In this document: piece by piece, positions 41,698 to 57,001 of the stretch
Numbering within the stretch: position 1 is the stretch's first letter
How the letters are laid out: each line of letters starts with the position of its first letter
Assembly: GCF_045037415.1 (NCBI RefSeq)
Contig: NZ_CP173438.1
Reading direction: 5' to 3' (one strand)
Source: Escherichia coli
GTDB lineage: Bacteria > Pseudomonadota > Gammaproteobacteria > Enterobacterales > Enterobacteriaceae
Length of the DNA stretch: 64,000 bases
Notes under the pieces: model-generated
The model's input: only the letters and a program-made list of their open reading frames with translations
What the model was told of the DNA's origin: nothing
Database searches by the model: none
Translations under genes and position numbers: made by a program

Positions 41698-43197
41698 ATG
41701 CTAAATTTATTTGTTGGCCTTGATATATACACAGGGCTTTTGTTATTACTTGCTCTGGCATTTGTGTTGTTCTACGAAGCAATCAATGGTTTTCATGACA
41801 CGGCGAATGCGGTGGCAACCGTTATTTATACTCGTGCCATGCAACCACAACTTGCTGTGGTGATGGCGGCATTTTTTAATTTTTTTGGCGTGTTATTGGG
41901 CGGACTTAGCGTTGCCTATGCCATTGTCCATATGTTACCAACCGATTTGTTGCTGAATATGGGGTCAACTCACGGCCTGGCGATGGTCTTTTCCATGCTG
42001 CTGGCGGCGATTATCTGGAACCTGGGAACGTGGTTCTTTGGTTTACCGGCCTCCAGTTCGCACACCTTGATTGGTGCGATTATCGGCATCGGTTTAACCA
42101 ACGCGCTGTTAACCGGCTCATCGGTGATGGATGCGTTAAACCTGCGTGAAGTGACCAAAATTTTCTCCTCGCTGATTGTTTCCCCTATCGTCGGCCTGGT
42201 CATTGCGGGTGGTCTGATTTTCCTGCTGCGCCGTTTCTGGAGCGGGACGAAAAAGCGTGACCGTATTCACCGCATTCCGGAAGATCGCAAAAAGAAAAAA
42301 GGCAAACGTAAGCCGCCATTCTGGACGCGTATTGCGCTGATTGTTTCCGCTGCGGGCGTGGCGTTTTCGCACGGCGCTAACGACGGGCAGAAAGGGATCG
42401 GCCTGGTAATGCTGGTACTGGTGGGGATTGCCCCTGCTGGCTTCGTCGTCAATATGAACGCGTCCGGCTATGAAATTACCCGTACCCGCGATGCCGTCAC
42501 CAACTTCGAACACTACCTGCAACAGCATCCTGAACTGCCGCAGAAGTTGATTGCGATGGAACCTCCATTGCCTGCGGCATCGACTGATGGCGCGCAAGTG
42601 ACGGAGTTTCACTGTCATCCGGCAAATACCTTTGATGCGATTGCGCGCGTTAAAACGATGCTGCCAGGCAATATGGAAAGCTACGAGCCGTTAAGCGTGA
42701 GTCAGCGCAGCCAGCTGCGCCGCATTATGCTGTGCATCTCTGATACTTCCGCGAAGCTGGCGAAACTGCCAGGCGTCAGTAAAGAAGACCAGAACCTGCT
42801 GAAAAAACTGCGCAGCGATATGTTAAGCACCATTGAGTACGCACCGGTATGGATCATCATGGCAGTAGCACTGGCGCTCGGCATTGGCACCATGATTGGC
42901 TGGCGTCGTGTAGCGATGACCATCGGTGAGAAGATTGGTAAGCGCGGCATGACGTATGCGCAAGGCATGGCGGCACAAATGACGGCGGCAGTGTCTATCG
43001 GCCTTGCCAGTTATATTGGGATGCCCGTCTCCACAACACACGTACTCTCATCTGCCGTAGCAGGAACGATGGTGGTGGACGGCGGTGGGTTACAGCGTAA
43101 AACGGTAACCAGCATCCTGATGGCGTGGGTGTTTACTTTACCGGCGGCGATTTTTCTTTCTGGTGGGTTGTACTGGATAGCATTGCAGTTGATTTAA
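41698..43197 (+). CDS. pitB: Low-affinity inorganic phosphate transporter (PiT family)
   Basis: 499-aa [44 protein letters not shown]... with the PiT GANDGQK signature. Confidence 0.95.
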
Positions 43198-43245
43198 CCT
43201 TCCTGAAAATGCCCGGTCCTGGCGATCGGGCATTTCCATTTTTGA

Positions 43246-43938
43246 CTAGTGATAACCACGCGCGGTCATAAAATCCGTAATCGCTTTTTCTGCATCAATC
43301 AGCACCTTTTCCAGTGGCTGATTAGCATCGATATCAACCAGTTGTGCACCGCCAAAGGTTAACTGTGGCGTTATGGCAATCTTCCTCGCCAGCGATTCCC
43401 GTTTATGGTCGGGTTTACGCGCGCAGGCAACTTCAAGGTCAACATTGAGTTTGATGACCAGATCAGGTTTATGGCTCGCCATCCAGTGAAACGCTTTACG
43501 TTCCTGGCTTGCCAGCCATGAGACAAAACGACCACCTTCAATGTTAGGTGGGAACACTGTACCATCGTAAGCGCCAGGAATTTGGTCCTGAGGATAACGG
43601 TCGGTTAGAACAATTAACCCGCGACGACGACAGGCAAGCATATGACGAAAGCGCAGTAAGCGACGGGCGACAAACGCTGTAATTACCAGCGCCGGAACTG
43701 GTCCTGGCAATTTTTTTGCTGTTTTCACCTGATTTCGTTCAATTGTTTTATGTAAGGATTTTCCCATCAACGGTAATTTTGTCACTGAACGACCGACATT
43801 TCCGGCCTGTTTTCCTAAATGAACTCTTTCGGCAGCACCATATTTTTCGACAACGGTAATGAGATGTTCACACACCGTTGACTTGCCTGAACCATCGCTA
43901 CCAATAACGGCAATTAATGGAGGTGTTATTGACTGCAT
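43246..43938 (-). CDS. yghT: P-loop nucleotide/nucleoside-kinase-like protein YghT
   Basis: 230-aa ORF with Walker [10 protein letters not shown], a TDRYPQ motif and a lid-like ARKPDH block; paralogous to the two following genes. Confidence 0.85.
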
Positions 43939-44111
43939 GAATATATCCTTTAATTTAAATATCCATTAAAAATATTTATTTGGTTAATATGTTTTTATGA
44001 AAGCGTAATTCAGGTCAATGTCACAATTAACCATTGTCACAATAAGGTTGAACGGATATTCTGAGCACGGACCACGTAATATTCAATACATTATTTGCTG
44101 CCGGGTTTTTC

Positions 44112-44825
44112 GTGAATCAACGTAATATGTCAATAATTAATTCCACGCCAGTGCGTGTTATTGCCATTGTAGGATGTGATGGTTCAGGTAAATCGACCCT
44201 CACGGCAAGCCTGGTAAATGAACTGGCAGCAACAATGCCAACAGAACACATTTATCTCGGGCAATCGTCCGGGCGAATTGGCGAATGGATTTCACAGCTC
44301 CCTGTTATTGGCGCACCTTTTGGGCGTTATCTGCGAAGTAAAGCGGCACATGTGCACGAAAAGCCCTCCACACCGCCTGGCAATATGACTGCGCTGGTTA
44401 TCTATCTGCTTTCCTGCTGGCGGGCGTATAAGTTTCGCAAAATGTTGTGTAAAAGCCAGCAAGGCTATCTGCTCATCACCGACCGCTACCCGCAGGTTGA
44501 AGTGCCGGGTTTTCGCTTTGATGGCCCGCAATTGGCAAAAACCACGGGCGGTAACGGTTGGATAAAAATGTTAAGGCAGCGCGAGCTGAAGCTGTACCAA
44601 TGGATGGCATCTTATTTGCCCGTATTGTTGATTCGTCTTGGCATTGATGAACAAACCGCGTTTGCGCGTAAACCTGACCACCAACTGGCGGCGTTACAGG
44701 AAAAAATCGCCGTTACGCCGCAACTGACATTTAATGGCGCCAGGATCCTTGAACTGGATGGTCGGCAACCAGCCGATGAAATTCTGCAAGCGTCACTACG
44801 CGCAATTCAAGCTGCGCTTTCCTGA
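44112..44825 (+). CDS. yghS: P-loop kinase-like protein YghS
   Basis: 237-aa ORF starting at GTG (44112); Walker A GCDGSGKST, TDRYPQ, ARKPDH. Confidence 0.85.
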   Translation: MNQRNMSIINSTPVRVIAIVGCDGSGKSTLTASLVNELAATMPTEHIYLGQSSGRIGEWISQLPVIGAPFGRYLRSKAAHVHEKPSTPPGNMTALVIYLLSCWRAYKFRKMLCKSQQGYLLITDRYPQVEVPGFRFDGPQLAKTTGGNGWIKMLRQRELKLYQWMASYLPVLLIRLGIDEQTAFARKPDHQLAALQEKIAVTPQLTFNGARILELDGRQPADEILQASLRAIQAALS

Positions 44826-44856
44826 TCACCAAAATGGATAGGGGATGATTTAACGA

Positions 44857-45630
44857 ATGGACGCACTACAAACACAAACTGTTAATAGTACAACCGCGCC
44901 GCAGCCCAACTACATTCCGGGGCTGATTGCGGTGGTCGGGTGTGATGGCACCGGTAAATCCACACTGACCACCGACCTCGTGAAATCGCTGCAACAACAC
45001 TGGCAAACCGAGCGGCGCTATCTGGGGCTGCTCTCGGGCGAAGACGGCGACAAAATCAAACGATTGCCGTTGGTTGGCGTCTGGCTCGAAAGGCGACTGG
45101 CGGCCAAATCATCGAAAACCCAAAGCATGAAAACCCAAAGCATGAAAACCAAATCTCCAGCGCTATGGGCGGCGGTGATTATGTACTGCTTCTCGCTGCG
45201 AAGAATGGCGAATCTACGCAAGGTTCAGCGACTGGCGCAAAGTGGCGTTCTGGTGGTCAGCGATCGCTTCCCGCAGGCTGAAATTTCGGGCTTTTATTAT
45301 GACGGACCGGGGATCGGCGTCGAACGTGCGACCGGGAAAATCAGCATGTTTCTGGCGCAGCGCGAACGGCGTTTATACCAAAAAATGGCGCAATACCGTC
45401 CTGAATTAATCATTCGTTTGGGGATTGATATTGATACTGCCATCTCCCGCAAGCCTGACCATGACTATGCCGAGCTGCAGGACAAAATCGGCGTCATGTC
45501 GACGATTGGCTATAACGGCACAAAAATTCTTGAGATTGATTCCAGAGCGCCCTACAGCGAAGTGCTGGAACAGGCACAGAAGGCGGTTTCTCTGGTTGCC
45601 ATCGTTTCTGACCGCCGAAGTTTAACTTAA
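44857..45630 (+). CDS. yghR: P-loop kinase-like protein YghR (carries an internal 5-aa tandem repeat)
   Basis: 257-aa ORF MDALQTQTVNSTTAPQPNYIPGLIAVVGCDGTGKST...; SDRFPQ and SRKPDH motifs. Confidence 0.85.
   Translation: MDALQTQTVNSTTAPQPNYIPGLIAVVGCDGTGKSTLTTDLVKSLQQHWQTERRYLGLLSGEDGDKIKRLPLVGVWLERRLAAKSSKTQSMKTQSMKTKSPALWAAVIMYCFSLRRMANLRKVQRLAQSGVLVVSDRFPQAEISGFYYDGPGIGVERATGKISMFLAQRERRLYQKMAQYRPELIIRLGIDIDTAISRKPDHDYAELQDKIGVMSTIGYNGTKILEIDSRAPYSEVLEQAQKAVSLVAIVSDRRSLT
45115..45150 (+). repeat. In-frame 15-bp tandem duplication inside yghR
   Basis: AAAACCCAAAGCATG occurs twice in tandem, followed by a partial third copy (AAAACC), encoding ...KTQSMKTQSMKTKS... Confidence 0.9.
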
Positions 45631-45675
45631 GGCTGGCGGGATACTTTTTACTATCAACGATAAGGTCAGGCTGAA

Positions 45676-47025
45676 TTGGCGGGTTTTAACATCAAACATT
45701 GGTTTGCAGATGGCGCGTTTCGCACCATTATTCGCAATAGCGCCTGGTTAGGCTCCAGTAATGTCGTGAGCGCTTTACTGGGTCTGTTGGCGCTCTCGTG
45801 TGCCGGTAAAGGGATGACGCCCGCCATGTTTGGCGTACTGGTGATTGTACAATCGTACGCCAAGTCGATCAGCGATTTTATTAAGTTTCAGATATGGCAG
45901 CTGGTGGTTCAGTACGGAACACCAGCATTAACCAACAATAATCCGCAGCAATTCCGCAATGTCGTCTCATTTTCCTTCTCGCTGGATATCGTCAGCGGCG
46001 CGGTGGCGATTGTCGGCGGCATTGCCTTACTCCCTTTTCTTTCCCATTCATTAGGTCTGGATGACCAAAGCTTTTGGCTGGCAGCGCTGTATTGCACGCT
46101 CATTCCTTCAATGGCTTCCTCCACGCCGACCGGCATTCTGCGTGCGGTAGATCGCTTCGATCTAATTGCTGTACAGCAAGCGACGAAACCTTTTCTGCGC
46201 GCAGCGGGGAGCGTCGTAGCCTGGTATTTTGACTTTGGTTTTGCGGGTTTTGTTATTGCCTGGTACGTGTCGAATCTGGTTGGCGGCACCATGTACTGGT
46301 GGTTTGCCGCGCGCGAATTACGCCGCAGAAATATCCATAACGCCTTCAAATTGAATCTGTTTGAGTCTGCCCGACACATTAAAGGCGCGTGGAGTTTTGT
46401 CTGGTCAACCAACATTGCCCACTCCATCTGGTCGGCGCGTAACTCGTGCAGCACAGTGCTGGTGGGGATCGTGTTAGGACCCGCTGCCGCCGGGTTATTT
46501 AAAATCGCCATGACATTCTTCGACGCCGCCGGAACGCCAGCGGGTTTACTGGGCAAAAGTTTTTACCCAGAGGTGATGCGTTTAGATCCGCGCACCACCA
46601 GACCGTGGTTGTTAGGCGTGAAGTCAGGTTTACTGGCGGGCGGAATTGGTATTCTGGTGGCGCTCGCGGTGTTGATCGTCGGCAAGCCGCTTATTTCGCT
46701 GGTGTTTGGCGTTAAGTATCTCGAAGCGTATGACCTGATTCAGGTGATGCTGGGCGCAATTGTGATTTCGATGCTGGGCTTCCCACAGGAGTCATTGCTA
46801 TTGATGGCGGGAAAACAGCGCGCTTTTCTCGTGGCGCAAACCATCGCCTCAATCGGCTACATCGTATTGCTGTTCATGTTCTGTCATCTGTTTGGCGTGC
46901 TGGGAGCAGCGTTTGCTTATTTCGGTGGGCAATGTCTGGATGTGGTGCTCTCGTTAATTCCGACCTTAAAGGCATTTTTTCAGCGCCATTCCTTGCTTTA
47001 TAACGCAGCCGGAGAGAAATCCTGA
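45676..47025 (+). CDS. yghQ: MOP-superfamily (Wzx-like) polytopic membrane protein YghQ; start uncertain
   Basis: 449-aa track ORF beginning at TTG 45676 with AAGG 9 nt upstream; highly hydrophobic multi-TM protein. Stop overlaps the start of the next gene (TGATG). Confidence 0.75.
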   Translation: MAGFNIKHWFADGAFRTIIRNSAWLGSSNVVSALLGLLALSCAGKGMTPAMFGVLVIVQSYAKSISDFIKFQIWQLVVQYGTPALTNNNPQQFRNVVSFSFSLDIVSGAVAIVGGIALLPFLSHSLGLDDQSFWLAALYCTLIPSMASSTPTGILRAVDRFDLIAVQQATKPFLRAAGSVVAWYFDFGFAGFVIAWYVSNLVGGTMYWWFAARELRRRNIHNAFKLNLFESARHIKGAWSFVWSTNIAHSIWSARNSCSTVLVGIVLGPAAAGLFKIAMTFFDAAGTPAGLLGKSFYPEVMRLDPRTTRPWLLGVKSGLLAGGIGILVALAVLIVGKPLISLVFGVKYLEAYDLIQVMLGAIVISMLGFPQESLLLMAGKQRAFLVAQTIASIGYIVLLFMFCHLFGVLGAAFAYFGGQCLDVVLSLIPTLKAFFQRHSLLYNAAGEKS

Positions 47026-47849
47026 TGATGAGAAAATATTTCCCGCTTGAGGCGAGCGAGCGTTTATTTGTTGCAGTTGAAGAAGATGATGTCGTTGATG
47101 CACAGGTCAGTTTGCCGCCGACTATCGCACTAAGTTGTACCACCGAAATCATCCATGATAATTACGCGTTATGCCTGCAATTCTGGCTCAATGGCGTCAA
47201 TCGCCAGGAGTTACTGCGTTTAATATGCAAACAGGCCAAAGGCGATGAGCTGACTGCTGATGAGCGCAAACAATTTAAATACATGCGAGCGCGCTACAAG
47301 CACCTGCGTTTTGCGCAACGGCTGTATTTAAAGAAGCATCAGGCCGGATTTTTATTCGGCAAAACGACCGTTTTTTTGGGGCGTTTTCAGGACGGTTTTC
47401 GTAACGGTAAGAAAAATATTGTGTCGTATTACGGCAACTTGTTACGGGTTTATTTAAGCTCTCCGGTCTGGTCGTTGGTGAACTATTCATTACGCCATAG
47501 CCAGTTAGAAAGCGTAAGCGGTTTTATTGCCTATCGGCAAAAGCAAATGCATACCCTGAAAGAGATAATTGCCAAACCGCGACTCACCGGCAGGGAATTT
47601 CATGATGTGCGAAAAATCATCAGCCAGCAGGTTTCTTATTACGACACCTTAAGATCGCTTGATCCTGAAAATAAAGAGGCGTTACAGATTTCCCGCTTCC
47701 TCGCCGCCATTAATGGCCTGATGGGGGATAAACACGACGACATGGTGGCGGATGATATGGAAAACCGCCAGTCGTATGATGCACCGGTGGCGCTGGATAG
47801 CGATATTCGCCAGCGCTTAGAGCTGCTGATTTCGCGTTTTCCGCTATAA
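47025..47849 (+). CDS. Hypothetical soluble protein, no recognisable family
   Basis: 274-aa ORF MMRKYFPLEASERLFVAVEEDD...; coding assignment rests on length, coupling to yghQ (1-nt overlap) and operon context. Confidence 0.6.
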   Translation: MMRKYFPLEASERLFVAVEEDDVVDAQVSLPPTIALSCTTEIIHDNYALCLQFWLNGVNRQELLRLICKQAKGDELTADERKQFKYMRARYKHLRFAQRLYLKKHQAGFLFGKTTVFLGRFQDGFRNGKKNIVSYYGNLLRVYLSSPVWSLVNYSLRHSQLESVSGFIAYRQKQMHTLKEIIAKPRLTGREFHDVRKIISQQVSYYDTLRSLDPENKEALQISRFLAAINGLMGDKHDDMVADDMENRQSYDAPVALDSDIRQRLELLISRFPL

Positions 47850-47857
47850 CCGGAGCA

Positions 47858-48421
47858 ATGATGTCATCTCGTTTGATTATTGCGCTGATTATCATGCTCT
47901 TAGCCCAGGGTGTGCAGGCACACAATTTTGTCACTGGCAAAACGGTTACCCCCGTTTATATCCAGGAAGGCGGCGAGCTGCTTCTGAATAGCGACGACGA
48001 AATTCACTACCAAAAGTGGAACAGCACACAGCTGGCGGGAAAAGTCCGCATTATCCAGTATATCGCCGGGCGTAAGTCGGCGAAGAAAAAGAACTCACTG
48101 TTAATTAAAGCGGTTGAAGCGGCAAACTTTCCGCAGGATCGTTTTCAGCCCACCACCATTGTGAACACCGATGATGCCATCTTTGGTACTGGCTATTTTG
48201 TCGTTGGCAAAATCGAAAAAAATAAACGCCGCTATCCGTGGGCGCAATTCGTTATTGACGGCAATGGACTGGGACGCGTTGCCTGGCGGTTGCCGGAGCA
48301 GAGTTCAACCATTCTGGTGCTGAATAAAGACGGGCAAATTCAGTGGGCAAAGGACGGCAGCCTGACGCCGGAAGAGGTAGATCATGTCATTGCGCTGGCG
48401 CAGAAACTGATCAATGAATAA
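47858..48421 (+). CDS. YtfJ-family periplasmic protein
   Basis: 187-aa ORF with signal peptide MMSSRLIIALIIMLLAQGVQA and GGAG Shine-Dalgarno; body resembles my recollection of YtfJ (QKWNS..LAGKVR..QYIAGR, TTIVNTDDAI, LNKDG..QWAKDG.LTPEEV). Confidence 0.65.
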   Translation: MMSSRLIIALIIMLLAQGVQAHNFVTGKTVTPVYIQEGGELLLNSDDEIHYQKWNSTQLAGKVRIIQYIAGRKSAKKKNSLLIKAVEAANFPQDRFQPTTIVNTDDAIFGTGYFVVGKIEKNKRRYPWAQFVIDGNGLGRVAWRLPEQSSTILVLNKDGQIQWAKDGSLTPEEVDHVIALAQKLINE

Positions 48422-48451
48422 AAAATTCAAAGGATTGAGGGTGTTAGTGAG

Positions 48452-49522
48452 ATGAAGCTGGTTGAACACTACATCATGCGTGGTACGCGCCGTCTGGTGC
48501 TGATTATCGTCGGTTTTCTGATCTTTATTTTCGCCAGCTACTCCGCACAGCGTTATCTGACCGAAGCGGCAAATGGGACCTTAGCTCTTGATGTTGTGCT
48601 GGATATCGTTTTCTACAAAGTGCTGATTGCACTGGAGATGTTGTTACCTGTTGGTCTGTATGTGTCAGTTGGCGTGACGCTAGGGCAGATGTATACCGAC
48701 TCGGAAATTACCGCTATCTCTGCGGCGGGGGGCAATCCGGGACGCTTGTACAAAGCCGTTCTTTATCTGGCGATACCGCTAAGTATTTTTGTCACCCTTC
48801 TGTCGATGTATGGTCGGCCGTGGGCTTATGCGCAGATTTATCAACTGGAGCAACAGTCGCAGTCGGAGCTGGATGTTCGCCAGTTGCGGGCAAAGAAATT
48901 TAACACTAACGATAACGGACGAATGATCCTTTCGCAGACGGTTGATCAGGATAATAATCGCCTGACTGACGCGCTGATTTATACTTCTACTGCCAATCGA
49001 ACCCGCATTTTCCGCGCCCGTTCGGTTGATGTGGTTGACCCATCACCTGAGAAACCGACCGTTATGTTGCATAACGGGACCGCCTATCTTCTCGATCATC
49101 AGGGGCGTGACGACAACGAACAGATCTACCGTAATCTGCAATTACATCTGAATCCGCTGGATCAAAGCCCTAACGTCAAACGCAAAGCAAAATCGGTCAC
49201 GGAGCTGGCGCGCTCAGCCTTTCCTGCCGATCATGCCGAACTGCAATGGCGACAAAGCCGTGGCCTGACAGCATTGTTGATGGCGCTGCTGGCCATTTCA
49301 TTAAGTCGGGTAAAACCGCGGCAAGGGCGATTTTCAACGTTATTGCCACTGACATTGCTGTTTGTTGCCATTTTTTATGGCGGCGACGTCTGCCGTACGC
49401 TGGTGGCTAACGGTGCGATTCCCCTCATTCCTGGTTTGTGGTTAGTACCCGGACTCATGCTAATGGGCCTGCTGATGCTGGTCGCACGCGACTTCTCTTT
49501 GCTGCAGAAATTTTCCCGATGA
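48452..49522 (+). CDS. LptF/LptG-family (YjgP/YjgQ) permease paralog
   Basis: 356-aa ORF: three N-terminal TM segments, a central soluble domain and C-terminal TM segments, the architecture of LPS-export permeases. Confidence 0.75.
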   Translation: MKLVEHYIMRGTRRLVLIIVGFLIFIFASYSAQRYLTEAANGTLALDVVLDIVFYKVLIALEMLLPVGLYVSVGVTLGQMYTDSEITAISAAGGNPGRLYKAVLYLAIPLSIFVTLLSMYGRPWAYAQIYQLEQQSQSELDVRQLRAKKFNTNDNGRMILSQTVDQDNNRLTDALIYTSTANRTRIFRARSVDVVDPSPEKPTVMLHNGTAYLLDHQGRDDNEQIYRNLQLHLNPLDQSPNVKRKAKSVTELARSAFPADHAELQWRQSRGLTALLMALLAISLSRVKPRQGRFSTLLPLTLLFVAIFYGGDVCRTLVANGAIPLIPGLWLVPGLMLMGLLMLVARDFSLLQKFSR

Positions 49523-50598
49523 ATGTTTTCAGTCGCTATTTAATCCGTCATCTCTTTCTCGGTTTTGCCGCCGCCGCAGGGCTATTGCTGCCGCTTTTTA
49601 CCACCTTCAACCTGATTAACGAACTGGATGATGTCAGCCCGGGCGGTTATCGCTGGACTCAGGCGGTGCTGGTGGTGCTGATGACCTTACCGCGTACACT
49701 GGTCGAACTTTCGCCGTTTATCGCATTATTGGGAGGGATTGTTGGCCTGGGGCAGTTATCGAAAAACAGTGAGCTTACCGCCATTCGCAGCACTGGGTTT
49801 TCTATCTTCCGTATTGCACTGGTGGCGCTGGTTGCCGGGATATTGTGGACTGTTTCGTTAGGCGCGATAGATGAGTGGGTGGCGTCGCCATTGCAGCAAC
49901 AGGCGCTGCAAATCAAATCGACTGCCACCGCGTTGGGGGAGGACGATGACATTACCGGCAATATGCTTTGGGCCAGGCGCGGTAATGAATTTGTGACGGT
50001 GAAATCGCTGAACGAGCAGGGCCAGCCTGTGGGCGTGGAGATATTTCATTATCGCGACGATCTCTCGCTCGAATCCTACATTTTTGCACGCAGTGCCTCC
50101 ATTGAAGACGACAAAACGTGGATCCTGCATGGTGTGAATCATAAAAAATGGTTGAATGGCAAAGAAACGCTGGAAACATCAGATAATCTTGCCTGGCAAT
50201 CGGCCTTCACCAGTATGGATCTTGAAGAGTTATCGATGCCGGGGAATACTTTTTCTGTCCGTCAGCTTAATCATTACATCCATTATTTGCAGGAAACCGG
50301 ACAACCCAGCAGCGAATACCGCCTTGCACTGTGGGAAAAACTGGGGCAACCGATCCTGACCCTGGCGATGATTTTGCTGGCTGTGCCGTTCACCTTTAGC
50401 GCCCCGCGCTCGCCAGGGATGGGTAGCCGTCTCGCTGTAGGCGTCATCGTTGGCTTACTCACCTGGATCAGCTATCAAATCATGGTCAATCTGGGATTGT
50501 TATTTGCGTTGAGCGCACCTGTTACCGCGCTCGGTTTACCGGTAGCGTTTGTGTTGGTGGCGTTGAGCCTGGTGTATTGGTATGACAGACAACATTAA
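49519..50598 (+). CDS. LptF/LptG-family (YjgP/YjgQ) permease paralog, LptG-like
   Basis: Track ORF 49438..50598; preferred start ATG at 49519 (MNVFSRYLIRHLFLGFAAAAGLLLPLFTTFNLINELDDV...) overlapping the upstream stop (ATGA). The N-terminus and LSKNSELTAIRSTGFS block parallel E. coli LptG. Confidence 0.78.
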   Translation: MNVFSRYLIRHLFLGFAAAAGLLLPLFTTFNLINELDDVSPGGYRWTQAVLVVLMTLPRTLVELSPFIALLGGIVGLGQLSKNSELTAIRSTGFSIFRIALVALVAGILWTVSLGAIDEWVASPLQQQALQIKSTATALGEDDDITGNMLWARRGNEFVTVKSLNEQGQPVGVEIFHYRDDLSLESYIFARSASIEDDKTWILHGVNHKKWLNGKETLETSDNLAWQSAFTSMDLEELSMPGNTFSVRQLNHYIHYLQETGQPSSEYRLALWEKLGQPILTLAMILLAVPFTFSAPRSPGMGSRLAVGVIVGLLTWISYQIMVNLGLLFALSAPVTALGLPVAFVLVALSLVYWYDRQH

Positions 50599-50632
50599 AC
50601 CCGCCGTGGCGCAACACCACAGCGGGCTCACA
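50599..50632. terminator. Stem-loop between the convergent LptG-like gene and the AOS-like gene
   Basis: CCCGCCGTGG-CGCAACA-CCACAGCGGG, imperfect 10-bp inverted repeat filling the 34-bp gap between two convergent stop codons. Confidence 0.45.
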
Positions 50633-51805
50633 TTACTGCTTCAGAGTAGCAAATGCCTGAATGATGGCATCGATTTGCTCACGACTGTGGGCAGCGTTTA
50701 CGCTACAGCGCAGCAGAGTGATGCCTGCAGGCGCGGCAGGTGGCAGGATAAGATTCACATAAACGCCCAGCGAAATAAGCTCGCGCCAGATGCGTAAACC
50801 TTCCTCTTTCGAACCGATTATTACTGGCACTACCGGGCTAATATGTGAACTTAACTCATAACCCAGTTTTTGCAGACCGTCATACAGATGGTTGGCGTTA
50901 TCCATCAGTTTTTGCCGCAGCTCTGGTTGTGTGGCAATGGTTCTTAACGACGAGCGCACGGTCGCAATGCAGGACGGAGAAGGAGAGGCGGTAAAAATAT
51001 ACGGGCGGCTGCCGTAGCGCAGCACTTCCATCGCTTCCGAACCGACAGCAAAACCGCCAATCGAGGCCAGACTTTTACTGAAAGTACCAACGATAATATC
51101 CACATCATCTTCAACGCCAACGGCTTCAGCCAGTCCGCGCCCCGTTGCGCCTAACACGCCAAACGAATGCGCTTCATCGACAATCAAATAACCACCGAGA
51201 CGACGTTTGATATCAACAATTTCCGCTAACGGCGCAACGTCACCGAGCATGCTGTAGATGCCCTCAACGATGATAATCGCCTCTTTCGCCCGTTCACCGA
51301 GGCGAACCATGCGCCGTTCCAGATCTTTAGCATCGTTATGGCGGAAACGAATAATTTCTGCGCCACCGAGAGAACAGGCGTCATAAATACTGGCGTGGCT
51401 GTCGGCATCCAGTAACACCACGGCGTTATGGTCGGCAAGTGCGCTGATGACGCCTAAATTAGCGGTATAACCGGTTGAAAAAACGATAGCGGTAGGGCGA
51501 TTGAAAAACTCGGCAATCTCTTTCTCTAACGCCAGGTGCGGCGCATAACTGCCGTTTGCCATACGAGAACCGGTGGTGCCGGTGCCTTGGGCCGCTAACG
51601 CTGCCTGACCTTCGGCGATGGCATCATGATTAAAGGTTAAACCGAGATAATTATTGGTCCCGGCCAGAATCACTTTTTTATTGCCGATCCGACCTTCGGT
51701 GGCGGAATACACTTCATCAATACAGGTGCCAAACGGTGTTAACCCGTTGTCACTAAATTGCAGTCGCTCGCCAGCAAGGCGCGCATATTTATCGTATAGC
51801 CCCAT
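50633..51805 (-). CDS. PLP-dependent alpha-oxoamine synthase (serine palmitoyltransferase / BioF / Kbl family)
   Basis: 390-aa ORF with VDEAHSFG and the PLP-lysine block GTFSKS; start ATG overlaps the ACP stop (TAATG). Confidence 0.85.
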   Translation of the reverse strand: MGLYDKYARLAGERLQFSDNGLTPFGTCIDEVYSATEGRIGNKKVILAGTNNYLGLTFNHDAIAEGQAALAAQGTGTTGSRMANGSYAPHLALEKEIAEFFNRPTAIVFSTGYTANLGVISALADHNAVVLLDADSHASIYDACSLGGAEIIRFRHNDAKDLERRMVRLGERAKEAIIIVEGIYSMLGDVAPLAEIVDIKRRLGGYLIVDEAHSFGVLGATGRGLAEAVGVEDDVDIIVGTFSKSLASIGGFAVGSEAMEVLRYGSRPYIFTASPSPSCIATVRSSLRTIATQPELRQKLMDNANHLYDGLQKLGYELSSHISPVVPVIIGSKEEGLRIWRELISLGVYVNLILPPAAPAGITLLRCSVNAAHSREQIDAIIQAFATLKQ

Positions 51806-52053
51806 TATTTATTCTCCAGCCATGGAAGTAGAGTTTCCATTAATTGCGCAGGGGTTTTGACATCCAGCAGAATATTAATAGGAATGGAAATATCGAATCT
51901 GTCTTCCAGCATCATTAAGAGATCCATCACTTTGATCGACTCCAGGCCAAGATCGTTGACGAGATCGCTGTCGGGCTTAATTTCCACACCGTTTTCGACC
52001 AAATCCTGTAAACAGGAAAGGATGTAATCCATTACTATTTCACGATTTACCAT
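51805..52053 (-). CDS. Acyl carrier protein
   Basis: 82-aa acidic protein with a phosphopantetheine-attachment-like DLGLESI motif. Confidence 0.75.
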   Translation of the reverse strand: MVNREIVMDYILSCLQDLVENGVEIKPDSDLVNDLGLESIKVMDLLMMLEDRFDISIPINILLDVKTPAQLMETLLPWLENK

Positions 52054-52084
52054 AGAAACGTTAACACACCTTTAAACAAGACAA

Positions 52085-52999
52085 TCAAAATAGCCCGTTG
52101 CGTAATGCGTGTTCCAGGCTAATCCCGGGAAACCAATTAATATCTTCAGAAATACGGTTATTACTTGCCGACCAGTCGGCATGGGTTAATTCACGGATTT
52201 TCGAACGAGTCAGCATCGGTTCTTTACCCGCCAGACGGCTCAACGCGGTACTGATATCCGCAAGGCAGGTGAGTAGCGGCAGAGGAATACCGACCATCCG
52301 CACGGAACCACAGCGGACATCGGCAACAAGCTGTTGGACACGTTGCCAGTCATAGCCTCCGGCGACGCCATCGCATAATTCATAGGTTTGCGTCTGTACA
52401 GTTTCGGCGCTTAACCACTGACCCACTGCTTGCGCAAAATCGGTGACGTGCAGGAAAGAGAGCTGTGTCTCTGGCGTGCCAAGTCGTGGCAGCAGACCGC
52501 GCAGCATCCAGTCAAACAGCGGTTTTAACTCTTTATCGCCGGGACCATACACGGCTGTCGGGCGAAAAACGCCCAACGTAATTGCGTCAGCCATTGCAGT
52601 CAGCTGTTGTTCGGCGACGTGTTTGGAATTTGCGTACCAGGAGAGTTCGGGATGGCGCGCCGCCAGCGAAGAGATAAACAGAAATCGTTGGCAAAAGCCG
52701 CTCTCTTTTGCCGCTTGCATCAGGCGCAGGCTGCCGTCAACGTTGCAGCGGGTAAAAATCTCTTCTTTGTGCCCGCGCACTTGCCCGGCGCAATGGACCA
52801 CCGCGCTGGCTCCGGTAACCAGTTCGCTAAGCGAATGTGTATCTTCCAGCGAACCGCGCACCCAAGTGAGATTATCATTGACGTGAGCGCGGGCAGTACG
52901 CGTCAATGCGCGAACGTGAAAGCCGCGGGCGAGCAGGTTATCAATAATATATTTACCGATAAACCCGGTAGCGCCCGTCACCGCGACAGTTTGATTCAT
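52085..52999 (-). CDS. NAD(P)-dependent epimerase/dehydratase-family (extended SDR) reductase
   Basis: 304-aa ORF with Rossmann VTGATGFIG and catalytic YxxxK (YANSK); start ATG overlaps the upstream stop (ATGA). Confidence 0.82.
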   Translation of the reverse strand: MNQTVAVTGATGFIGKYIIDNLLARGFHVRALTRTARAHVNDNLTWVRGSLEDTHSLSELVTGASAVVHCAGQVRGHKEEIFTRCNVDGSLRLMQAAKESGFCQRFLFISSLAARHPELSWYANSKHVAEQQLTAMADAITLGVFRPTAVYGPGDKELKPLFDWMLRGLLPRLGTPETQLSFLHVTDFAQAVGQWLSAETVQTQTYELCDGVAGGYDWQRVQQLVADVRCGSVRMVGIPLPLLTCLADISTALSRLAGKEPMLTRSKIRELTHADWSASNNRISEDINWFPGISLEHALRNGLF

Positions 53000-54744
53000 G
53001 CCAGGGACTCCTGCACATGAAGACTGGCAGCATAAGCCTTCTGATAACGTTTTTTCGCTTCCGCACGGGCAGGCTTGCCGGAGGATGTTCGGGGAATACT
53101 GTGGGGCGGCAACAGATCGATATCCGCGGTAACGCCAAATTCGCTTTGGATCCGTGCTGCCAGCGCGTGGATAAGCTGCCCGCGACGTTCTTCATCGCTG
53201 ATCCGACACTGGATCTGCAAAATGATTTTTTCCTGGGCGGTAACAAAAGCAATCGCATCGCCAGAATGAATTTCCGGTTCCTGTTCCGCAATATATTCAA
53301 TATCCTGCGGCCAGATATTACGGCCACGAATAATAATCAGATCTTTAATGCGTCCGGTGACATACAGATAACCGTCCAGCAGATAACCGAGGTCGCCGGT
53401 GTCTAACCAGCCCGTCGCGGCAATCTCGTCTTGTGAAATCTGGTCGCCAAAGTAACCGCTCATCAGGCTAGGGCCGGAGATGCAAATATGGCCTACCACA
53501 CGTTCCGCGACAGGTATACCTGCTTCATTGCGGATTTCAATGCCATGTTCCGGCAACGCTTTACCGCAGTTGACGAAAGTCGATACGGCGCGTGTTTCAG
53601 CACCCGGCGCGACGGCTTTACCCTGGTATTCGAGGATGTCGCGATCCACTTCGTTAACCACAACCCCGGAAGCTTCATCAGAGAAGCTGACAGCCAGCGC
53701 ATTTTCTGCCAGTCCGTAGCACGGCATGAAAGTTTTATCGTCAAAGTTGACCTGACGGAAACATTCAGCGAATTGATGGAGTTGTTCTGCGGAGATGGGT
53801 TCTGCACCAATACCAGCGACGCGCCAGCAGGAAAGATCCAGTTCAGCGAGATCTTTTTCATTCACGCGGCGCTGGCACAATTCATAGCCAAACGGCGGCG
53901 CAACGGAAACGGTGCCGCGATTTTTACTGATCAATTTAAGCCATTGCAGAGGACGCATGGCAAAATCCTGAGTGCGCAAATAATCTACTGAAAGCTGCGT
54001 GGCGACGGGGGTCAGGAGAAAGCCGACCAGTCCCATATCATGGTAGAAAGGCAGCCAGGAGACGCAGCGGTCGCCAGGGCGTAATTTAATCCCATCGTGG
54101 CTTATAGCACGTAGATTAGCCATCACTTCGCGGTGAGTAATGATAACGCCACGGGGAAAACGGGTGCTGCCGGAGGTGTACTGGAGGTAGGCGATATCGT
54201 TTGGAACTGGACGTTGAAGCGCAACATCGGCTTCCGGTAATGCCTTAAACCAGGCGTGGCTTAAAACATGTAATTCGGGATTGTTATGCGTCGCGGCATT
54301 GACCAGTGGCAACCACTCATCACCAGTGATAATGGCTGCGGGCTGGCAACTTGCCAGTAACCCCTGCAGTTTGGCGCTCCAGGAATCCCGCTGACCGACG
54401 CCCATTGGAATCGCCAACGGGACGGCGACTAAGCCGGCATACTGGCAGGCAAAAAAAGCCTCTACAAACCCGCTACTCGTTTCGGCAATCAGTGCCACGC
54501 GATCGCCTTTTTTCAGGTTCAGCGATAACAACCGCTTCGCACCAGCTTCGGCACGCGCTTTTAACGTCTGATATTCCAGTTGATCTTCAAGTTGGCAACG
54601 TCTGTCATAAAAATTCATTCCAGCGCTACTCAGAGCGGCATAGTCCAAAGCATCAACCAGCGTTGGAAAATCGGCATAGCGCATAGGTAGGGAATGCGTA
54701 AAGATTTTATTAGACATATACACCACGAAAAAATTGGATATCAA
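52996..54744 (-). CDS. Fatty acyl-AMP ligase / acyl-ACP synthetase (AMP-dependent synthetase family); start uncertain
   Basis: Track ORF starts at TTG 54744; an in-frame ATG at 54717 (MSNKIF...) is the alternative. AMP-binding core YTSGSTRFPRGV and a C-terminal ...SGKPAR... block. Confidence 0.82.
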   Translation of the reverse strand: MISNFFVVYMSNKIFTHSLPMRYADFPTLVDALDYAALSSAGMNFYDRRCQLEDQLEYQTLKARAEAGAKRLLSLNLKKGDRVALIAETSSGFVEAFFACQYAGLVAVPLAIPMGVGQRDSWSAKLQGLLASCQPAAIITGDEWLPLVNAATHNNPELHVLSHAWFKALPEADVALQRPVPNDIAYLQYTSGSTRFPRGVIITHREVMANLRAISHDGIKLRPGDRCVSWLPFYHDMGLVGFLLTPVATQLSVDYLRTQDFAMRPLQWLKLISKNRGTVSVAPPFGYELCQRRVNEKDLAELDLSCWRVAGIGAEPISAEQLHQFAECFRQVNFDDKTFMPCYGLAENALAVSFSDEASGVVVNEVDRDILEYQGKAVAPGAETRAVSTFVNCGKALPEHGIEIRNEAGIPVAERVVGHICISGPSLMSGYFGDQISQDEIAATGWLDTGDLGYLLDGYLYVTGRIKDLIIIRGRNIWPQDIEYIAEQEPEIHSGDAIAFVTAQEKIILQIQCRISDEERRGQLIHALAARIQSEFGVTADIDLLPPHSIPRTSSGKPARAEAKKRYQKAYAASLHVQESLA

Positions 54745-55087
54745 AAATAAAATGACAATAATGCGGTGGATTATATAGGCATAAAAGATAAATGAGATAG
54801 TATTTTCATCGGTGCGATATTGAACATTGATTTAAATAATAGGTTTTGTTTTGTTGTTTTTATTGTGAATGATATTTGATTTATGAATGTATTAAGAATG
54901 AACCTTGTCTGACCGCATTAAATCGCTAAAAGGCATTGTGGCGCTTCTTCGTTGGCTGTGATCTTATCGTAATCATTAATAAATAATATTTATTCTTATT
55001 TTGTATTCATGGTGTTGATTATTAAGATGCCGTTCGTTGCTGTTGCAACCTGTTTTTCATCGTTAATTATTTGTTATCCACAGAGAT
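54745..55087. promoter_or_regulatory. AT-rich divergent intergenic region between the lipid-synthesis operon and yghO
   Basis: ~340 bp of visibly AT-rich sequence with A/T tracts (e.g. TTTTGTTTTGTTGTTTTTATTGTGAATGATATTTGATTTATGAATG) between two divergent starts. Confidence 0.4.
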
Positions 55088-56230
55088 ATGGAATGCGATC
55101 TGCTGATGATTAAAATTGAAAAAGTAATTAATAAAAATGACCTTAAGGCATTTATCGCTTTTCCGTCATCACTTTATCCCGACGATCCAAACTGGATACC
55201 CCCTTTATTCATTGAACGCAACGAGCATTTGTCTGCGAAAAATCCGGGGACGGACCATATCATCTGGCAGGCGTGGGTGGCAAAAAAAGCGGGGCAGATA
55301 GTTGGGCGTATTACCGCGCAAATAGATACCTTGCACCGCGAGCGTTACGGCAAAGATACCGGTCATTTCGGCATGATTGACGCCATTGATGATCCGCAGG
55401 TTTTTGCCGCGTTGTTTGGCGCAGCGGAAGCGTGGTTGAAGTCACAAGGTGCAAGTAAGATCAGCGGTCCTTTCAGCCTGAATATCAATCAGGAAAGCGG
55501 ATTACTGATTGAAGGTTTCGATACACCACCCTGTGCGATGATGCCGCACGGTAAACCGTGGTATGCCGCGCATATTGAACAATTGGGTTATCACAAAGGC
55601 ATTGATTTACTGGCGTGGTGGATGCAGCGAACCGATCTCACTTTCTCTCCGGCGCTAAAAAAACTGATGGATCAGGTGCGTAAGAAGGTGACCATTCGCT
55701 GCATCAATCGCCAGCGGTTTGCCGAAGAGATGCAGATCCTGCGTGAGATTTTCAATTCTGGCTGGCAGCACAACTGGGGATTTGTGCCGTTTACCGAACA
55801 TGAATTCGCGACCATGGGCGACCAACTTAAATATCTGGTGCCGGACGATATGATCTACATCGCTGAGATTGATTCTGCACCCTGCGCGTTTATTGTCGGC
55901 TTGCCAAACATCAACGAGGCGATTGCCGATCTGAACGGATCGCTCTTTCCCTTCGGCTGGGCAAAATTGCTGTGGCGTTTAAAAGTCAGCGGTGTGCGAA
56001 CTGCGCGAGTACCGCTGATGGGCGTGCGGGACGAGTATCAGTTCAGCCGCATCGGCCCGGTGATTGCGTTGTTATTGATTGAAGCCTTACGCGATCCGTT
56101 TGCCCGCCGGAAGATCGATGCGCTGGAGATGTCATGGATCCTCGAAACCAATACAGGCATGAATAACATGCTGGAACGCATTGGGGCGGAGCCGTACAAG
56201 CGTTACCGATTGTATGAAAAGCAGATTTGA
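55088..56230 (+). CDS. yghO: GNAT-like acyltransferase-family protein YghO, apparently intact
   Basis: 380-aa continuous ORF MECDLLMIKIEKVINKNDLKAF... (alternative start ATG at 55106). I recall K-12 yghO being annotated as a pseudogene. Confidence 0.7.
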   Translation: MECDLLMIKIEKVINKNDLKAFIAFPSSLYPDDPNWIPPLFIERNEHLSAKNPGTDHIIWQAWVAKKAGQIVGRITAQIDTLHRERYGKDTGHFGMIDAIDDPQVFAALFGAAEAWLKSQGASKISGPFSLNINQESGLLIEGFDTPPCAMMPHGKPWYAAHIEQLGYHKGIDLLAWWMQRTDLTFSPALKKLMDQVRKKVTIRCINRQRFAEEMQILREIFNSGWQHNWGFVPFTEHEFATMGDQLKYLVPDDMIYIAEIDSAPCAFIVGLPNINEAIADLNGSLFPFGWAKLLWRLKVSGVRTARVPLMGVRDEYQFSRIGPVIALLLIEALRDPFARRKIDALEMSWILETNTGMNNMLERIGAEPYKRYRLYEKQI

Positions 56231-56236
56231 TGGCAG

Positions 56237-57001
56237 TCACCCCTGCTTCATCTCCAGCGGCACCGCCGAGCGAATCAAATGGTGGCCTTCCAGCTCGATA
56301 TCGTGGAGATTCTTTTTCACGGTCCGCACATGATCGCGTGCTGCGCGCTGGGCGACGTGCGGCAGCCGCTGCAACACCGCGTTGTAGATCCGCGCATGCT
56401 GGCGATCGATCTGCTTTTTTTGCTGTGGTCGATGGTAGAGATTATTTACGCTGGCAAACACCGAATTAAACATCAGGTCGGTCAATGATTGCAGCGTAAA
56501 CTCCAGCACCTGATTGTGAGAAGCCTGACAAATGGCGAGATGGAAAGCGTGATCCAACTGCGCATGTTCGATCAGCGAAATCTCTTTGTTGTTCTCACTG
56601 GCGGCGAGCATTTTTTCATAACAGCGGGTTATCACAACAAAATCAGCCTGGGTTCCCAGCGTTGCCGCCAGCCTTGCCGATTCGCCCTCCAGTAATGCGC
56701 GAACGTCGAGCAGATCGTACAGCGTTCGCGGCTGCGTACTGAACAGATGGATCAGCGGGCTGGTGTCCTGCACCCGATTAAGCCGTGCGACACGAGAATC
56801 GCGACCCTGCGCCGTTTCAATAATCCCGCGCCCGCGCAGCACGGTCAGCCCTTCACGCAGTGCGGAGCGTGAGAAGCCGAGCTTTTCACACAGTCGACGT
56901 TCCGAGGGAAGCGGCTGACCGACCTTCAGTACGCCGTCGATAATTAACCGTTCGATACTCTCTGCAACCACTTCGCAAATAGGGCGACGTTCATCTTTCA
57001 T
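56237..57001 (-). CDS. glcC: GntR/FadR-family glycolate-responsive activator
   Basis: Track ORF 56237..57061; preferred start ATG at 57001 (MKDERRPICEVVAESIERLI...), 254 aa. Confidence 0.93.
   Translation of the reverse strand: MKDERRPICEVVAESIERLIIDGVLKVGQPLPSERRLCEKLGFSRSALREGLTVLRGRGIIETAQGRDSRVARLNRVQDTSPLIHLFSTQPRTLYDLLDVRALLEGESARLAATLGTQADFVVITRCYEKMLAASENNKEISLIEHAQLDHAFHLAICQASHNQVLEFTLQSLTDLMFNSVFASVNNLYHRPQQKKQIDRQHARIYNAVLQRLPHVAQRAARDHVRTVKKNLHDIELEGHHLIRSAVPLEMKQG

Follow-up and report, generated by a model that had tools for sequence, protein, structure and literature searches.

Sphingolipid genes of Escherichia coli B/BL21 have been described as ECD_02850-02854, which correspond to spt, acpR, epi, aasR and yghO; serine palmitoyltransferase (SPT), AcpR and AasR from E. 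coli B are active enzymes, and 3-oxo-sphinganine was shown biochemically to be formed (PMC9386255). The equivalent locus of Caulobacter carries genes for LptF2 and LptG2, paralogs of the permeases LptF and LptG, together with a PF01943-type flippase candidate, CC_1166, and an export route comprising a flippase and LptF2G2 has been proposed for it (PMC11324152). LptF2/G2 are required for sphingolipid export in Caulobacter, where they make use of the housekeeping LptB; lptC2 is confined to Caulobacter, and the steps downstream of LptF2/G2, in the periplasm and at the outer membrane, are stated to be unknown (bioRxiv 10.64898/2026.04.12.717747). In Sulfolobus, a heteromeric polyphosphate (polyP) kinase, PPK3, is assembled from two dTMP-kinase paralogs, and saci_2017-2021 of Sulfolobus acidocaldarius encode SixA, PPX, cPPK3, rPPK3 and a CHAD protein (PMC12995831, 2026). 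CHAD domains are specific polyP binders; in CtCHAD, residues H253, R256 and R260 of the H-x-x-R-x-x-x-R motif contact polyP (PMC6537752). Here, these systems are compared with a 64,000-nucleotide stretch of E. coli chromosome (the window), which contains the long form of the pitB-glcC region, a form that K-12 lacks. The subject of the comparison is a trio of adjacent plus-strand genes within it: yghQ, a gene for a 274-residue protein referred to below as CHADL, and ytfJL, which encodes a member of the YtfJ family.

The trio is the central block of a 13-gene Enterobacterales sphingolipid locus that has been lost in K-12. All 13 open reading frames of the locus are intact in the window, where NCBIfam and the locus genes themselves reveal spt, acpR, aasR, an SDR reductase gene and a bCerS-type acyltransferase gene clustered together. 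The minus strand carries spt (50633-51805; NF047599, 600 bits against a cut-off of 500), of which the E. coli B enzyme has been assayed; acpR (51805-52053), encoding a specialised acyl carrier protein recognised by NCBIfam (ECD_02853); epi (52085-52999), encoding a cerR-type SDR reductase by NCBIfam and RefSeq (ECD_02852); and aasR (52996-54744, RefSeq start at 54720), encoding an acyl-AcpR synthetase of the fatty acyl-AMP ligase type (NF006624, 874 bits; ECD_02851). The gene for the bCerS-type N-acyltransferase, yghO (55088-56230, plus strand; ECD_02850), completes this set (PMC9386255).

Downstream of the trio, on the plus strand, lptF2 (48452-49522, 356 residues; TIGR04407, 316 bits) and lptG2 (49519-50598, 360 residues; TIGR04408, 306 bits) overlap at ATGA, and both products score above the LptF/LptG equivalog cut-offs. 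The former is named lptF in RefSeq and is the counterpart of Caulobacter LptF2 (bioRxiv 10.64898/2026.04.12.717747). Given the spt-acpR-epi-aasR-yghO neighbours and the Caulobacter precedent, the "Lpt-like permeases" that an earlier note on this DNA had placed downstream of the trio are the sphingolipid LptF2/G2, and the trio itself lies in a sphingolipid locus. That note was right that LptF/G paralogs follow the trio, in what appears to be a single operon, and missed the context of the cargo, which is given by sphingolipid genes and not by genes for lipopolysaccharide (LPS) or polysaccharide. The RefSeq names "dTMP kinase" for yghS and yghT and "LPS export ABC transporter permease LptF/LptG" for the two paralogs are probably misleading or over-specific.

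Within the trio, the TGA stop of yghQ (45676-47025) at 47023-47025 has one base in common with the ATG of CHADL (47025-47849) at 47025-47027, so that the TGATG coupling noted earlier at 47023-47027 is exact. The ATG of ytfJL (47858-48421) follows 8 nt after the CHADL stop, with a GGAG Shine-Dalgarno sequence at 47852-47855, also as first described; RefSeq takes the next ATG, at 47861. From yghS through lptG2 the intergenic gaps are, in order, 31, 45, −1, 8, 30 and −4 nt, and the sole strong terminator-like hairpin of this stretch (16-bp stem, 50596-50630) sits after lptG2, between the convergent lptG2 and spt. Given the short gaps and the position of this hairpin, the seven genes from yghS to lptG2 look like one operon, of which yghS is the apparent first gene. 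A promoter-like site is found upstream of yghS at 44034-44062, as a consensus match only. A scan of 43000-56500 with Rfam returned no RNA family, and the base composition of the locus has no island signature.

To place this arrangement in a wider context, 73 CHADL loci were compared, one per genome and with 10-kb flanks, using a locus search built on a 19-sequence alignment. At least one dTMP-kinase-like (dTMPK-like) paralog was present in 64 of these loci (three in 48, two in 12), and such a neighbour was truly absent from just four. Within 10 kb, yghQ was found in 60 and spt in 49. A CHADL homologue immediately follows yghQ in 62 loci, with a stop/start overlap of 1 or 4 nt in 40 of the 62. 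Where ytfJL is present (48 loci), it is adjacent and on the same strand in 44, and lptF2/G2 are within reach in 46. The comparison thus gives an order of constancy in which the association of CHADL with dTMPK-like paralogs exceeds that with yghQ, which in turn exceeds that with ytfJL and lptF2G2.

Among Enterobacterales, whose loci represent about 18 named genera, the set of 13 co-occurs, and every locus with full flanks has it whole. Rearrangement is seen as blocks only, namely yghT-yghS-yghR, yghQ-CHADL-ytfJL, lptF2-lptG2, aasR-epi-acpR-spt and yghO. The three genes of the trio remain contiguous where lptF2G2 has been inverted or moved, as in Sodalis, Rosenbergiella, some Serratia, Erwinia, Pantoea and Rahnella (loci L014, L016, L018, L029, L030, L046-L051, L055, L052, L039 and L068), and the earlier grouping of yghQ, CHADL and ytfJL therefore holds. 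In Rhodanobacteraceae the order is yghT-yghS-yghR-aasR-epi-acpR-spt-yghQ-CHADL, with yghQ-CHADL directly after spt and in the same direction. In Sphingomonadales loci, genes for a two-component system and an MBL-fold protein are accompanied by a pair of dTMPK-like genes and by yghQ and CHADL, and starts overlap. Seven loci (L006, L060, L069, L073, L074, L076 and L078) have CHADL with dTMPK-like genes and no yghQ. A distant homologue, P0185, had no informative neighbours.

The earlier note could name no family for the 274-residue protein, and direct searches of Pfam, NCBIfam and PDB sequences were all empty; profile and fold methods alone succeeded. When a profile of 73 diverse CHADL homologues was compared with the PDB, the best match was the CHAD structure 6qv5 (E 0.0021), with the two CHAD signature helices aligned. 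The Pfam CHAD model (PF05235) matches 19 of the 73 members at E<=0.1 (best 2.5e-5) and does not match the E. coli member. The AlphaFold2 (AF2) model of CHADL (pLDDT 97.1, pTM 0.93) is all-alpha and contains the two four-helix bundles of the CHAD fold. The profile and the model together show the protein as a predicted divergent, stand-alone, "long" CHAD domain, a homology that, given the lack of a Pfam CHAD match for the E. coli protein, is one of profile and fold. Residues R88, D123, H193, R196 and D238 are invariant, and K92, R95, H105, K197, H237 and Y251 are among those nearly so. Aligned to the H-x-x-R-x-x-x-R motif of CHAD are K85-x-x-R88-x-x-x-K92-x-x-R95 in the first half, where Lys takes the place of His, and H193-x-x-R196-K197 in the second. 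Given that no signal peptide is present, CHADL would be cytoplasmic.

The family is conserved, so that the absence of conservation listed by the earlier note as grounds for refutation does not apply: homologues fall into 344 clusters when grouped at 90% identity, and grouping at 50% leaves 207 representatives, at a steady length of ∼280 residues. Members from Escherichia, Pseudocitrobacter, Hafnia, Serratia, Sodalis, Pantoea, Raoultella and others are 60-75% identical and of constant length. Two existing names were rejected: the RAST-style "TPR repeat protein" given to some homologues, the fold being that of CHAD, and the GspM name on cluster P0032, which looks like a mis-annotation. For six longer CHADL-containing fusion proteins and three further long homologues NCBIfam returned nothing; local phmmer and precomputed Pfam matches revealed tandem CHADL repeats in four and an APH-type kinase with CHADL in three. 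The latter three are P0251, P0253 and P0268 (L084 8001-10931). In P0251 and P0268 an N-terminal hydrophobic segment, resembling a signal peptide or anchor, precedes an APH/protein-kinase-like domain (HGDLKPGNLFFD), which is followed by two CHAD-like repeats; of the kinase region P0253 retains the C-terminal end only, together with the two repeats. Should these proteins be exported, the kinase would have to use some donor other than ATP.

The most constant partners of CHADL are the dTMPK-like genes. In the window these are yghT (43246-43938, minus strand, 230 residues; NCBIfam dTMP kinase, E 6.8e-6, sub-threshold), yghS (44112-44825, plus strand, 237 residues) and yghR (44857-45630, plus strand, 257 residues; dTMP kinase, E 1.6e-7, sub-threshold). 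RefSeq calls both yghS and yghT "dTMP kinase", although they score far below the equivalog cut-off. The three products belong to one paralogous family (alignment A3), and each has, without variation, the Walker A motif GxDGxGK[ST], RKxDH and a DR motif; given that all of these elements are retained, no paralog is obviously a degenerate regulatory subunit, unlike the situation in PPK3. Thymidylate kinases are the best PDB matches of the A3 profile (E 6e-7), and Pfam similarity is likewise weak and sub-threshold. Considered as PPK2- or PPK3-type enzymes, YghR/S/T gave nothing beyond this sub-threshold resemblance to dTMP kinases. The match to the Sulfolobus tokodaii cPPK3 homologue 2plr/5h70 is weaker than that to canonical thymidylate kinases (E 0.005) and covers the P-loop alone. 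At the level of gene content, yghT, yghS and yghR with CHADL provide the PPK3-type combination of at least two adjacent dTMP-kinase-like paralogs and a CHAD gene. Neighbours encoding PPX, SixA, Pst or NUDIX proteins were absent from the window locus and from the other loci inspected. Since CHADL has dTMPK-like gene neighbours and also occurs fused to APH-type kinases in P0251, P0253 and P0268, it is tied to kinases in two separate architectures.

More distant CHADL and dTMPK modules adjoin genes of a different kind: LmtA-like methyltransferases at L069 and L078, an LpxE-like PAP2 phosphatase at L073, ArnT/ArnC-like genes with a PmrAB-like two-component system at L060, and PAP2_3 with a two-component system at L003. 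These LmtA-, LpxE-, Arn- and PAP2-type calls are family-level matches below cut-offs, with lipid A family hits far below, and on such matches the common theme of the neighbours appears to be the modification of envelope-lipid phosphates. An MBL-fold gene is also found among the neighbours of distant modules (L069, L073, L078, L060, L003 and L080).

YghQ (449 residues) matches Pfam PF01943 Polysacc_synt (5.8e-9) and PF13440 Polysacc_synt_3 (3.1e-8), and NCBIfam gives a sub-threshold MOP flippase match (4.2e-9). Its AF2 model has about 12 long helices, and the best Foldseek match of the model is the lipid III flippase WzxE (9g9p_A; E 9.5e-8, TMt 0.80, root mean square deviation 4.0), followed by MATE and MurJ structures. 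On the basis of family match and a MOP fold with 12 transmembrane (TM) helices, YghQ is predicted to be a Wzx-type MOP flippase, in agreement at the fold level with its first description as Wzx-like. The TTG start, previously regarded as uncertain, is the sole canonical start upstream of the invariant residues D12, G13, R16, R20 and N21 and is also that of RefSeq. In other genera the YghQ homologues start from an ATG six codons downstream, where E. coli has ATC.

The 187-residue product of ytfJL belongs to the YtfJ_HI0045 family (TIGR01626, 216 bits against a cut-off of 151; PF09695, 1.9e-59), as its provisional YtfJ-like label implied. Its N-terminus, MMSSRLIIALIIMLLAQGVQA followed by HNF, has the make-up of a classical Sec signal peptide (residues 1-21): the n-region is positive, the core is hydrophobic and V-Q-A marks the cleavage site. 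The protein is therefore predicted to be secreted. It has no cysteine. A total of 217 homologues were found; among the best 120 of the 217, identity is nowhere lower than 59%, and the source names that accompany them are without exception those of Enterobacterales genera. Among the homologues found here, YtfJL occurs in Enterobacterales only, and there almost always with lptF2/G2. YtfJL is not a bridge protein of the LptC/LptA type: no LptC or OstA_N domain was detected, Pfam giving PF09695 only and NCBIfam TIGR01626 only. A search of PDB sequences with YtfJL returned nothing. An apparent PF09695+PF03739 "fusion" (P0288) was set aside as a single record that is probably a frameshift artefact.

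Taken together, these data are best accommodated in a model in which the kinases and CHADL build or hold a phosphate-rich head group on ceramide, YghQ flips the lipid, LptB-F2G2 extracts it and YtfJL assists; we put the probability of this model as a whole at about 50%. Ceramide would be formed by Spt, AcpR, AasR, Epi and YghO on the cytoplasmic face of the inner membrane, and YghR, YghS and YghT would add an anionic, phosphate-rich head group to it. CHADL would act as their phosphate-chain-binding partner, binding either the donor (polyP) or a pyro- or oligophosphate product. The finished lipid would then be flipped by YghQ, kept in a fixed ratio with CHADL through the stop/start overlap, and LptF2/G2, drawing on the housekeeping LptB for power as they do in Caulobacter, would extract it from the outer leaflet with YtfJL as an Enterobacterales-specific periplasmic accessory to extraction or to the head group. 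Since a phosphomonoester becomes a diphosphate through dTMP-kinase chemistry, natural guesses for the head-group step are that it yields a ceramide pyro- or oligophosphate or that phosphorylation depends on polyP. The classic relatives of YghQ flip pyrophosphate-linked lipids. NCBIfam gave none of the 13 E. coli proteins a match to a Tam41-, DAG-kinase- or CofC-type family, and RefSeq annotates no lptC2 among them; in the absence of such matches, YghR/S/T and CHADL are candidates for the replacement of Caulobacter CpgABC.

The relay from inner membrane to periplasm that the earlier note had suggested for the trio survives in part. A Wzx-type flippase, the LptF/G paralogs downstream and the Caulobacter precedent are consistent with it; CHADL, by contrast, is predicted to be cytoplasmic and is linked to kinases, and YtfJL is not of LptC/LptA type. 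Since CHADL appears cytoplasmic and has YghR/S/T, not the transport genes, as its most constant partners, head-group chemistry is a likelier function for it than a relay. A bolder version of the head-group model, in which YghR/S/T with CHADL constitute a lipid-directed, PPK3-like system that gives ceramide a pyro-, tri- or oligophosphate head group, producing a "ceramide polyphosphate" (stepwise through the three kinases or from polyP) that is brought to the outer membrane through a CHAD-linked flippase and LptB-F2G2, with YtfJL as the missing periplasmic component, strikes us as quite improbable. Were it true, most E. coli, but not K-12, would have a bacterial membrane lipid of a new class and a CHAD domain in a new role.

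Several observations weigh against the head-group model. The basic residues at +4 and +7 of the second CHAD half-motif are gone in E. coli; with these lost, polyP binding by the E. coli protein may be weak or retargeted. The dTMP-kinase similarity of YghR/S/T is sub-threshold and gives no clue to the phosphate acceptor. A YghQ-(GGGGS)4-CHADL fusion modelled with AF2, on 21 paired sequences, gave a pTM of 0.56 and no docking signal, in what was a crude test without predicted aligned error. YtfJL resembles none of the known lipid carriers. The yghQ-CHADL loci of Rhodanobacteraceae and Sphingomonadales have neither ytfJL nor lptF2G2 within 10 kb, and given such modules the three transport-type genes are not an obligatory unit. 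Solitary CHADL copies exist (L024, L031, L081 and L079), and no lipid product of the E. coli locus is reported in the literature searched. Those at L024, L031 (Pluralibacter) and L081 (Acetobacter) are extra copies that lack kinase, flippase and spt genes as neighbours; the one at L024 adjoins a BCCT transporter.

The parallel with PPK3 raises the alternative that YghR/S/T are a PPK3-type polyP kinase, or a polyP-dependent nucleotide kinase, with CHADL as polyP-binding partner, in a soluble polyP module that adjoins the sphingolipid genes but does not act on a lipid and from which YghQ and YtfJL are separate. The gene association is that of the PPK3 operon, at least two dTMP-kinase paralogs with CHAD, and modules of CHADL with kinases but without yghQ or spt do exist; CHAD domains, moreover, bind polyP specifically. 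Nevertheless, the neighbours expected of such a module (PPX, SixA, Pst and NUDIX) are replaced by membrane-lipid genes in the loci examined, E. coli already possesses PPK1 and PPX, and the stop/start overlap of yghQ and CHADL recurs in 40 of 62 loci. Given also that the A3 profile matches the S. tokodaii cPPK3 homologue more weakly than canonical thymidylate kinases, we consider a soluble module unlikely. Nor do we think it likely that the target is lipid A/LPS or an undecaprenyl-phosphate carrier, with a diphosphate-type lipid such as lipid A 1-diphosphate or a polyprenyl-diphosphate donor made by the kinases and CHADL and flipped by YghQ. This proposal agrees with the RefSeq name "lipopolysaccharide biosynthesis protein", with the polyprenyl-diphosphate-linked substrates of Wzx and MurJ taken together with the WzxE match of YghQ, with the LmtA-, LpxE-, ArnT/ArnC- and PmrAB-like genes beside distant modules and with the scores of LptF2/G2 above the LptF/LptG cut-offs. 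It is, however, difficult to reconcile with the presence of spt within 10 kb in 49 of the 73 loci, with the position of yghQ-CHADL directly after spt in Rhodanobacteraceae and with the occurrence of the module in Sphingomonadales, which are described as being without LPS (bioRxiv 10.64898/2026.04.12.717747). Moreover, NCBIfam and RefSeq annotation place no glycosyltransferase, Wzy or Wzz among the genes of the E. coli locus, and matches to lipid A families fall far below cut-offs.

The distribution of the trio in E. coli bears on whether it is a decaying remnant without present function, in which gene order alone has been conserved. It was matched in 4631 of 5426 complete E. coli genomes, and at least 80% of it is present in 4128, nearly all at 95-100% identity; ∼24% of the genomes are without an intact trio. 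The exceptions are deletions mediated by insertion sequences (IS): in K-12-type genomes (L082) IS5 replaces the region from 3′ yghQ through aasR, and in strain E41 (L083) IS1 replaces that from yghS through 5′ ytfJL. These two deletions, the incomplete genomes and a yghO frameshift in strain TO124 are what a remnant would show. By contrast, the intact reading frames of the window, the high identity among the 4128 genomes that keep the trio, the homologues that, at 60-75% identity, keep their full length and the invariant residues of the motif from genus to genus and the activity of SPT, AcpR and AasR from E. coli B (PMC9386255) all argue against a remnant, which we regard as very improbable.

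Some features of the region stand apart from these arguments. The IS5 and IS1 deletions are two independent events. In TO124 the trio is identical to that of the window, and yghO has a 1-nt insertion and is labelled "frameshifted" in RefSeq. Within yghR, a 15-nt tandem repeat of 3.1 copies (45104-45150) encodes KTQSM repeats, and the gene is 774 nt long in the window as against 759 nt in a K-12-type genome. The phosphate transporter gene pitB (41698-43197) adjoins yghT. A functional link to it was considered and dropped; as the two genes are neighbours solely in loci of Escherichia, Pseudocitrobacter, Hafnia and Citrobacter, their adjacency probably reflects lineage synteny.

Much of the framework is already known, namely the sphingolipid genes of E. 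coli B, the presence of LptF2/G2 in sphingolipid loci of gammaproteobacteria, the proposal of a PF01943 flippase, polyP binding by CHAD and PPK3 itself. In the literature searched there was nothing on the CHAD identity of the 274-residue family or its tight linkage to YghQ and YghR/S/T, nor on the recurrence of the module in envelope-lipid loci or a YtfJ-family protein as a component of the locus. A family without a name, with its 207 representatives, thereby gains a fold and a testable class of ligand, and the association of dTMP-kinase paralogs with CHAD is extended from archaeal PPK3 to bacterial envelope-lipid loci. For the head groups of bacterial sphingolipids outside Caulobacter, and for the crossing of inner membrane and periplasm, the locus offers three conserved, uncharacterised candidates. 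Given that the published sphingolipid genes come from that strain, BL21(DE3) should carry the locus; K-12 is a natural deletion control, and questions of head group and transport can thus be addressed in E. coli.

Comparison with individual relatives brings out what is particular to each component. YtfJL matches the E. coli YtfJ/Haemophilus HI0045 family over its full length above cut-off and is, like its members, predicted to be secreted; unlike YtfJ, it is a separate paralog confined to the Enterobacterales sphingolipid locus, in a family without known function. YghQ has in common with WzxE, Wzx and MurJ the 12-TM MOP fold, the predicted flipping of a lipid with a phosphate-containing head group and invariant Arg residues (R16 and R20) on the first helix, although its identity to WzxE is only 17-20%. 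In place of the glycosyltransferase, Wzy and Wzz partners of Wzx, its genomic partner is a cytoplasmic CHAD-like protein, an association undescribed for any Wzx. CHADL is 9-17% identical to the CHAD structures RcCHAD (6qv5), CtCHAD (3e0s), PptA (6rn5) and E. coli YgiF (5a61), the E. coli protein lying below Pfam detection, and its genomic context consists of membrane-lipid and flippase genes and not of PPK, PPX or TTM genes. Like the PPK3 operon, the E. coli locus combines several dTMP-kinase-derived P-loop paralogs with a CHAD gene while the canonical dTMP kinase is encoded elsewhere in the genome; it differs in having three paralogs and no PPX or SixA, and in that the module lies in a lipid locus and is coupled to a flippase.

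The closest counterpart of the whole is CC_1152-CC_1168 of Caulobacter, which likewise has spt, acpR, aasR, an SDR reductase and a bCerS-type N-acyltransferase together with an LptF/LptG pair and the PF01943 (IPR002797) protein CC_1166. As compared by annotations, E. coli is without CpgA/B/C (Tam41-like, DAG-kinase-like ceramide kinase and phosphoglycerate transferase), without CC_1152/1153/1158 and without LptC2, whereas the published Caulobacter annotations contain no CHAD-like protein, dTMP-kinase-like paralogs or YtfJ-family protein. The logic proposed for the two loci is nonetheless the same: an anionic sphingolipid would be made, flipped and then extracted by LptB-F2G2.

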